A stretch of 10,100 nucleotides of DNA. Source: a virus (Duplodnaviria; Heunggongvirae; Uroviricota; Caudoviricetes). Positions 916 through 1,947 of this stretch are shown one piece after another. The notes under the pieces are model-generated. The model was not told the origin of the DNA and made no database searches. It was given only the letters and a program-made list of their open reading frames with translations. Location: positions 1-10,100 of IMG/VR virus record IMGVR_UViG_2693429634_000014; one strand, given 5' to 3'. Both the position numbers and the translations under genes were made by a program. How positions within the stretch are numbered: the stretch's first letter is position 1; every line of letters starts with the position of its first letter.

Positions 916-1330
916 CGTAAGTAAAATCAGCCACCCACAGCTGGTCAGGTCGTTCTGCCACGAACTGACGGTTTACGCGGTCGCCTGCGGCAACGGCTTT
1001 CCGGCTGATGGTCGTACGGACCTTTTTACCCCGGAGAACACCGGCAAGTCCCATAACCGCCATGAGACGTGCCACAGTGCATCTGGCCACTCTGATACCT
1101 TCCCGTAACAACTGACGCCAGACTTTACGCACACCGTATACCTTGTGATTTTCATCGTATACGCGCTGTATCTCTTTCTTCAGCCAGTCATCGCGCTGCG
1201 CACGGGCACTGCGTTTATCCGGATGATGTCGCTGTTGCTGACAGTGGTAATACGTTGACGGGGCAATATGCAGTTCGCTGCATAGCGGTCCGACCCCGTA
1301 CTGCTCACGCAGCTTATCCAGCAGTGGCAT
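916..1330 (-). CDS. IS629 OrfB transposase, 5' exon only (first 138 codons); interrupted by the group II intron directly after the W-V-A-D-F-T-Y motif
   Basis: ORF 851..1330 encodes [39 protein letters not shown]...ERPDQLWVADFTY, matching IS629 OrfB, then switches to [21 protein letters not shown], which is read-through into intron sequence. From memory IS629 OrfB continues ...FTYVSTWQGFVYVAF. Confidence 0.85.
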
Positions 1331-1656
1331 TATTTTTTCCAGAGGCGGTCGAACTCCGCCTTCGCAAAATAAGCGGAAGCCTGGCGAAGGATATCGTTAC
1401 TGCGGCGCAGTTCACGATTTTCACGCTCCAGCTCTTTCAGACGCTGACGTTCAGCGGTGGTGAGCCCTCCATCACCGCCTCCGGTATCCCGCTCATGCTG
1501 GCGAACCCAGACACGCAGAGTCTCCGGCGTACAGCCAATCTTTGGAGCAATGGAACAAATTGTCGCCCATTGTGAGTCATATTCGCCCTGACTTTCCAGA
1601 ACCATACGGGCTGCCCGTTGACGGACTTCAGGGGAAAAACGAGTATTTTTAGTCAT
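1330..1656 (-). CDS. IS629 OrfA (transposase N-terminal, helix-turn-helix subunit), 108 aa
   Basis: ORF-track protein [108 protein letters not shown] matches IS629 OrfA as I recall it; its stop overlaps the orfB ATG (ATGA), as in IS629. Confidence 0.9.
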
Positions 1657-1947
1657 CCTGTTTACCTCTTTCTCAGGAAGTTTAGTCTCCAGGATTTCCG
1701 GGGCGGTTCATACACTAACCTCAACAACATGCTCTATAAATGACTACACAGTATTCAGCAGAAAATCCTGCACTTTTGACATGCGTCCACCCGGAGCAGG
1801 AGACAGAACCCCAAAACTAAAACTCGCAGCTACTGAGATGACATGGCTATCTAAAACTATAGAAACAGAGATACACAACACAAAAGAATAGCAACCACTT
1901 ACCAGAGAACACAAAAAGCCACAGACCCGAAACACCTGACTGCAAGC

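Follow-up and report, generated by a model that had tools for sequence, protein, structure and literature searches.

An IS629 copy in a prophage effector region of Escherichia coli is split by the group II intron E.c.I4 at the first catalytic-Asp motif of its transposase gene

The DNA analysed here (the window) is a stretch of 10,100 bp that corresponds to the reverse complement of the whole of draft contig CYCM01000067.1 from the E. coli assembly GCA_001286185.1. Its gene content is that of the late end of a lambdoid prophage, and includes genes for a J-like tail tip protein, Lom and a collagen-repeat tail fibre. The prophage also carries an effector region in which an IS629 element is set amongst an nleB-like gene, the remnant of an espO gene and espK. 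The features of the window that bear on the analysis are listed in Table 1.

Table 1. Positions of the main features in the window (position 1 is the first base of the 10,100-bp stretch).
Feature	Position	Strand	Description
Group II intron E.c.I4, first 915 nt of 2,270	1..915	minus	5' ribozyme part and start of the protein ORF
ltrA (reverse transcriptase/maturase), first 81 codons	2..244	minus	ATG at intron nt 672 (window 244); ends with the contig
EBS1 (CGUAAG), intron nt 331-336	580..585	minus	Hairpin loop; from a complementarity scan
orfB', truncated frame, 159 aa	851..1330	minus	138 IS629 residues and 21 intron-derived residues, then stop
IBS1 (CUUACG), last six exon bases	916..921	minus	6/6 Watson-Crick complement of intron nt 331-336
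IS629 5' portion, 795 bp	916..1710	minus	Left inverted repeat, orfA, frameshift region, orfB codons 1-138 and one further base
Codons for W132-V-A-D135-F-T-Y138, first-Asp motif of the DD(35)E triad	917..937	minus	Inside the Pfam rve match of intact OrfB
ALIL pseudoknot, intact	1259..1375	minus	Programmed -1 frameshift signal of IS3-family elements; Rfam RF01497
orfA, intact, 108 aa	1330..1656	minus	ORF list; Pfam HTH_Tnp_1, E 3.7e-12
IS629 left terminal inverted repeat	1681..1710	minus	TGAACCGCCCCGGAAATCCTGGAGACTAAA; outer end at 1710 reads TGAACCGCCCCGGAAATCC...
NleB-family effector gene	1971-2951	minus	326 aa; Pfam SseK_NleB, arginine glycosyltransferase effector

Several observations can be made about the genes that surround the element. 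The 326-aa NleB-family protein has identical copies in 62 blocks of the assembly collection, where it is nearly always found beside an intron-free IS629. The gene for an espO-like type III effector is truncated by the IS629 copy, with its remnant lying at 1712-1891 on the plus strand of the window; the orthologous stretch of the TB354 genome is annotated as 'secretion protein EspO, missing N-terminus'. The tail-fibre gene (window 3399-4718, minus strand) encodes a protein of 439 aa with long collagen-like G-X-Y repeats. An IS66-family element, missing from the window, interrupts the adjacent tail-fibre C-terminal gene in TB354 and in one other locus (L003).

An original prediction, made from this DNA alone, had identified the element at 916-1710 as IS629. 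These coordinates turned out to delimit exactly the 5' portion of IS629, which is 99.8% identical to uninterrupted 1,310-bp copies of the element at the same locus in other strains, and whose relatives are labelled 'IS3-like element IS629 family transposase' in RefSeq. The complete element in TB354 ends in an imperfect inverted copy of the left repeat (7 mismatches in 30 positions). The orfA/orfB layout with a programmed -1 frameshift is preserved in the window copy, where orfA is intact and the frameshift pseudoknot is matched by Rfam with 119 bits against a gathering score of 50 (E 3.8e-31).

The second frame of the element, orfB, is broken. Within intact OrfB (295 aa), the Pfam rve core covers residues 126-222, and three residues of the protein, D135 (in WVADFTY), D194 (in HSDKGSQY) and E230 (in MAESING), align with the D, D and E of the avian sarcoma virus integrase core, which we take to be the catalytic residues of that enzyme. 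While this alignment is weak and not significant on its own (E 0.24), it agrees with the Pfam rve match, and the spacing between D194 and E230 is that of a DD(35)E triad. A search of the PDB with OrfB returned no significant relative, only such weak integrase-core alignments at E values of about 0.24. Since D135 lies within WVADFTY, the break falls three codons past the first catalytic Asp and removes both the second Asp and the Glu. The original prediction had likewise placed the split at the motif that holds the first Asp of the triad, which our alignments bear out, with the codons at 937-917 and the junction at 916/915.

As encoded in the window, the DD(35)E core thus retains only D135, with D194 and E230 lying beyond the intron, and is complete in the intact orthologues; the window copy is therefore an interrupted IS629 rather than a member of another family. 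The predicted consequences for the protein also hold: OrfB (ORF 1330-851) is truncated to 159 aa, ends at a stop 21 codons into the inserted sequence and lacks the second D and the E. When the 159-aa product was compared with Pfam, HTH_21 was the sole match and the rve core was lost. As it stands, the window DNA encodes OrfA and a catalytically dead truncated OrfB, either as the 159-aa product or, if frameshifted, as an OrfAB of ~268 aa.

To fix the junction between the element and the sequence that interrupts it, the window was aligned both to the uninterrupted IS629 that TB354 carries at this locus (L002) and to a complete IS629-intron composite (E. coli O145:H28 RM12761, L001). The base at 916 (G) is the final IS629 base and at the same time the first base of the next codon, for Val, while the inserted sequence, GTGTGCCCGG..., begins at 915. 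Its first five bases, GUGUG (window 915-911, minus strand), fit the GUGYG consensus of group II intron 5' ends and lie exactly at the exon boundary. The insertion is in the orientation of the sense strand of orfB, one base past the Tyr codon of W-V-A-D-F-T-Y.

Rfam recognises nothing in the 915 nt of intron present in the window (no group II family was reported for this portion, even at E values up to 1), and the intron is identified through its near-identity to full-length copies. A CRISPR-DR8 match in the window (19 bits, E 0.38) was dismissed as noise. The 915 nt are 99.8% identical to nt 1-915 of E.c.I4-2b in E. coli E24377A (NC_009801 4848623-4850893; coordinates from the supplement of the Leclercq and Cordaux catalogue, PMC3522654), and 99.6% identical to the 5' end of the 2,270-nt element in RM12761 (L001 4804-7073); relative to full-length copies they carry 2-4 substitutions. 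At the 3' end of the RM12761 intron, domains V and VI are matched by the Rfam model Intron_gpII (RF00029) with 64.9 bits against a gathering score of 40, and this match ends exactly on the last intron base, which is the 3' splice site.

The coding part of the intron gives a similar picture. Taken on their own, the 81 N-terminal ltrA codons in the window match no family, but the full 502-aa protein of the RM12761 copy is recognised by TIGR04416 ('group II intron reverse transcriptase/maturase') with 340 bits against a cut-off of 300. In the same protein Pfam identifies RVT_1 and GIIM domains, with no HNH or other endonuclease domain. This fits the published placement of E.c.I4 in ORF class A, among the ORFs without a D/En (DNA-binding/endonuclease) region (PMC3552965).

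Judged by its sequence, the interrupting DNA is therefore the catalogued mobile group II intron E.c.I4, of bacterial class A and without an endonuclease domain, inserted in the sense orientation as had been proposed. E.c.I4 is the name used in the Zimmerly group II intron database, and S.f.I1 of Shigella flexneri is 99% identical to it. In addition to near-identity, the window intron shares with E.c.I4 the same insertion point in an IS3-family transposase gene, a host, IS629, that is amongst those published for this intron, and, in its full copies, a length of 2,270 nt and a class A protein with reverse transcriptase and maturase domains but no endonuclease domain. It differs from the catalogued intron in that only the 5' 40% is present in the window, and in a single private substitution, described below.

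Full-length copies show how the reading frame could be restored. In the full composite, the intron (2,270 nt) is directly followed by the 3' exon TCAGCACATGGCAGGG..., which continues orfB; in RM12761 this continuation begins TCAGCACATGG.... Precise removal of the intron would ligate the exons as ...TTTACTTACG joined to TCAGCACATGG..., so that the spliced message of the full composite reads ...WVADFTY-VSTWQGF..., identical to that of uninterrupted IS629. The same holds across the relatives that were compared: the joined exons of L001, L013, L025 and L026 reproduce the uninterrupted IS reading frame, whereas the window contig itself ends within the intron. The expectation that an intact transposase depends on splicing is upheld by these full-length copies, and production of an intact enzyme from the window copy would need exact RNA splicing.

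How often such splicing might take place can be gauged by analogy. A search of the literature for splicing or mobility data on E.c.I4 returned none. The only measured case of an IS-borne intron is RmInt1 in ISRm2011-2 of Sinorhizobium meliloti, for which a splicing efficiency of 0.07 +/- 0.02% was reported (PMC3035460). By this analogy, ligated mRNA from the window copy is probably rare, in which case the IS629 copy would be largely disabled for self-driven transposition. RmInt1 resembles the window intron in being a mobile group II intron within an IS transposase gene, but it sits in a different host IS and its splicing has been measured. It likewise has no endonuclease domain, belongs to class D, and its host ISRm2011-2 is a member of the IS630 family. 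Introns such as RmInt1 have been suggested to keep their host mobile elements from spreading, or to limit that spread (PMC3035460, PMC4238363), and the notion that an intron restrains its host IS is thus an already published idea.

We then considered why the intron should lie at this codon. The last six exon bases form an IBS1 that is fully complementary to EBS1, which is displayed in a hairpin, GGCAGUG-AUACGUAAG-CACUACC, that is present in both the MFE and the centroid folds. A scan for an EBS2-IBS2 pairing combined with the MFE fold yielded several wobble-rich candidates of 5-7 bp, none of them clearly in a loop. As a side observation, the stem of the EBS1 hairpin carries the private substitution of the window copy, G341A (window 575), which creates a C-A mismatch; the change is absent from the RM12761, E24377A, K-12, XJW9B263 and FDAARGOS_1248 copies.

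Three host elements share the 2,270-nt intron, its EBS1 and the codon phase of the insertion: IS629, a diverged IS629-like element on a plasmid, and IS911. At the insertion point IS629 has the motif WVADFTY and the IBS1 CTTACG, which makes six of six pairs with EBS1. The plasmid-borne element has the same protein motif with CCTACG (five of six pairs), and IS911 has WCGDVTY with CCTATA (four of six). These hosts accord with the published targets of E.c.I4, namely IS629, IS911, ISEc16 and ISEc31 (PMC3522654). A further example comes from E. coli K-12, in which IS911A of prophage CP4-6 (ykfC/eyeA region) harbours a fragment of this intron, with 99.8% identity, at the homologous codon of the transposase gene; it differs from the window copy in its host, IS911, and in being truncated at intron nt 1764 by IS5.

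From these alignments, the position in the window, one base past WVADFTY, is the standard homing site of E.c.I4. The intron falls at the first-Asp motif because the bases that pair with EBS1 encode a conserved catalytic motif of the IS3 family, and for the same reason the target recurs across IS3-family copies. The location within a catalytic motif is therefore best explained by an intron that targets conserved sequence, and a regulatory purpose is not needed to account for it. The targeting of IS3-family transposase genes by E.c.I4 is already in the literature.

We sought to determine how frequently the arrangement occurs by searching 5,426 complete E. coli genomes for records with at least 80% query coverage. 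A 1,750-bp query made up of the IS629 5' half and the 5' part of the intron was found in 1,682 records from 1,353 of the 5,426 genomes, and the full 3,579-bp IS629::E.c.I4 composite in 1,743 records from 1,405 of them. In RefSeq, loci of this kind are annotated as an IS3/IS629 transposase pseudogene in two parts, one on either side of ltrA. The feature in the window is thus an instance of an already known and very common IS629::E.c.I4 composite; as such it is a routine annotation point that opens no new question.

At the same coverage threshold, window 1-3200 had no matching record among the 5,426 complete genomes, and in none of them (0/5,426) did the IS629 copy beside the nleB-like gene contain the intron. 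An intron-free IS629 was found at exactly the same place, beside an identical NleB-family gene, in six draft assemblies and in the complete genome TB354, and the left flank of the window IS629 is that of these intron-free copies. In TB354 (L002) the element is 1,310 bp long, possesses both terminal repeats and a 3-bp GTA duplication, truncates the espO-like gene and has espK on its far side. EspK, which adjoins the right end of the IS, is identical in all seven intron-free loci. The homologue search for the other side of the locus did not return this exact EspK amongst its proteins; a partial EspK that is 99% identical (P0078) came from a different arrangement in which espK lies directly beside the tail-fibre genes. 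Since no complete genome has the intron in this IS629 copy, its acquisition is recent and strain-limited, and the insertion can be regarded as a strain-specific event in a prophage effector locus that might serve as a typing marker.

Taking these data together, we consider it highly probable (about 0.9) that an IS629 copy in the effector region of this prophage was invaded by mobile E.c.I4 at its standard homing site. By extension from known group II introns, the intron RNA-protein particle would recognise the site through pairing of EBS1 (CGUAAG) with the last six exon bases (CUUACG), and the intron would then reverse-splice into the DNA and be copied back by its own reverse transcriptase. 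Lacking an endonuclease domain, E.c.I4 may insert by reverse splicing into DNA that is transiently single-stranded at replication forks. Fork-associated insertion is the route taken by endonuclease-lacking introns such as RmInt1, on which this proposal for E.c.I4 is based. IS copies, being abundant, dispensable and horizontally mobile, could offer a selfish intron a suitable set of landing sites. A published interpretation of E.c.I4 sees it as selfish, with selection limiting its spread (PMC3522654).

The original prediction had raised the possibility that the arrangement acts as a regulatory switch, in which IS629 transposase is made only when the intron splices, adding a layer of control over transposition within the effector locus. 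The sense orientation of the intron, the exact restoration of the frame on splicing, and the intact orfA and frameshift signal upstream are all compatible with such a switch, and a similar role has been suggested for RmInt1 in ISRm2011-2 (PMC3035460, PMC4238363). Nothing in the arrangement is specific to this locus, however, as IS copies on chromosomes and plasmids, and other IS3-family members, have the intron at the corresponding site. In other strains, this same IS629 insertion is free of the intron. Furthermore, splicing at 0.07%, in the only case measured, is nearer to inactivation than to regulation, and the catalogue study reads E.c.I4 as selfish and held in check by selection (PMC3522654). 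A regulatory switch therefore seems quite unlikely.

The intron may have entered the element by a route other than retrohoming: another intron-bearing IS629 in the same cell could have donated it through homologous recombination or gene conversion. Relevant here are the few differences that separate the IS copies: the IS629 5' half differs from the window at 2-3 of 795 nt in six of the seven intron-free copies. The bases of the window copy at SNP positions 14, 231 and 380 match the orthologous intron-free copies, and the base at the SNP nearest the intron (IS position 648) matches the RM12761 composite, unlike the orthologous empty copies, a pattern that would fit arrival of the intron by recombination between IS copies. 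That exchange of this kind takes place here is suggested by the seventh intron-free copy (L012), where the IS629 at the same insertion point is a variant that differs from the window copy at 36 of 795 nt (L012 4299-5093 against window 916-1710); the IS copies at this locus thus appear to have been replaced or converted by recombination with other copies. The argument turns on a single informative SNP, however, the 3' side of the window copy lies beyond the end of the contig, and the perfect match between EBS1 and IBS1 makes direct retrohoming equally easy. We therefore regard delivery by recombination as a tentative alternative, of lower probability than not.

A further question is whether the window copy is whole. 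The contig stops at intron nt 915, at window position 1, within stacked repeats formed by an intron inside an IS, which would explain why the draft sequence breaks off here; intron domains IV-VI, the larger part of ltrA, the 3' exon and the right end of the IS lie past this point. Were the copy a truncated or rearranged fragment, missing its remainder through deletion or displacement, the IS would be inactive regardless of intron splicing. The contig end within the intron would be accounted for in this way, and truncated copies of E.c.I4 exist, as in K-12 MG1655, where intron nt 1-1764 remain in IS911A and are cut by IS5, and amongst the several E.c.I4 fragments listed in PMC3522654. Against this, draft contigs routinely break inside repeats, and the 915 nt that are present carry few substitutions relative to full-length copies. 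Complete composites are also about as frequent as the 5' junction (1,743 and 1,682 records, respectively), and most junction-bearing copies are therefore probably complete. A complete composite is thus likelier than a truncation for the window copy, and a remnant is improbable. With regard to the position of the break itself, we noted that the contig end at nt 915 lies away from the IS and intron boundaries, where a repeat-induced break would be expected. A K-12-type intron fragment could be ruled out as the cause of a break at nt 915, as the K-12 fragment spans nt 1-1764.

On the reading of invasion by E.c.I4 at its homing site, the window IS629 copy is best flagged as probably not autonomous. 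The transposase of intron-free IS629 copies could still mobilise the ends of this copy in trans, as long as its 3' half exists. Influence in the opposite direction can also be envisaged, in which the ~268-aa truncated OrfAB made from unspliced transcript, keeping the DNA-binding and multimerisation parts but without the catalytic core, could bind to the ends of IS629 and exert trans-dominant inhibition on intron-free copies of the element in the same cell. Were this so, an IS copy invaded by E.c.I4 would come to repress its own family, which would damp the IS629-driven rearrangement of effector-carrying prophages; we consider this very improbable.

Finally, the 3'-truncated E.c.I4 copy in IS911A of K-12 MG1655 was found to contain both ykfC and the annotated 'small RNA EyeA'. 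Within the intron, EyeA maps to nt 390-464 (L024 4581-4655), in the 5' (ribozyme) part upstream of the intron ORF, and its sequence is also present in the window, at 452-526 on the minus strand.
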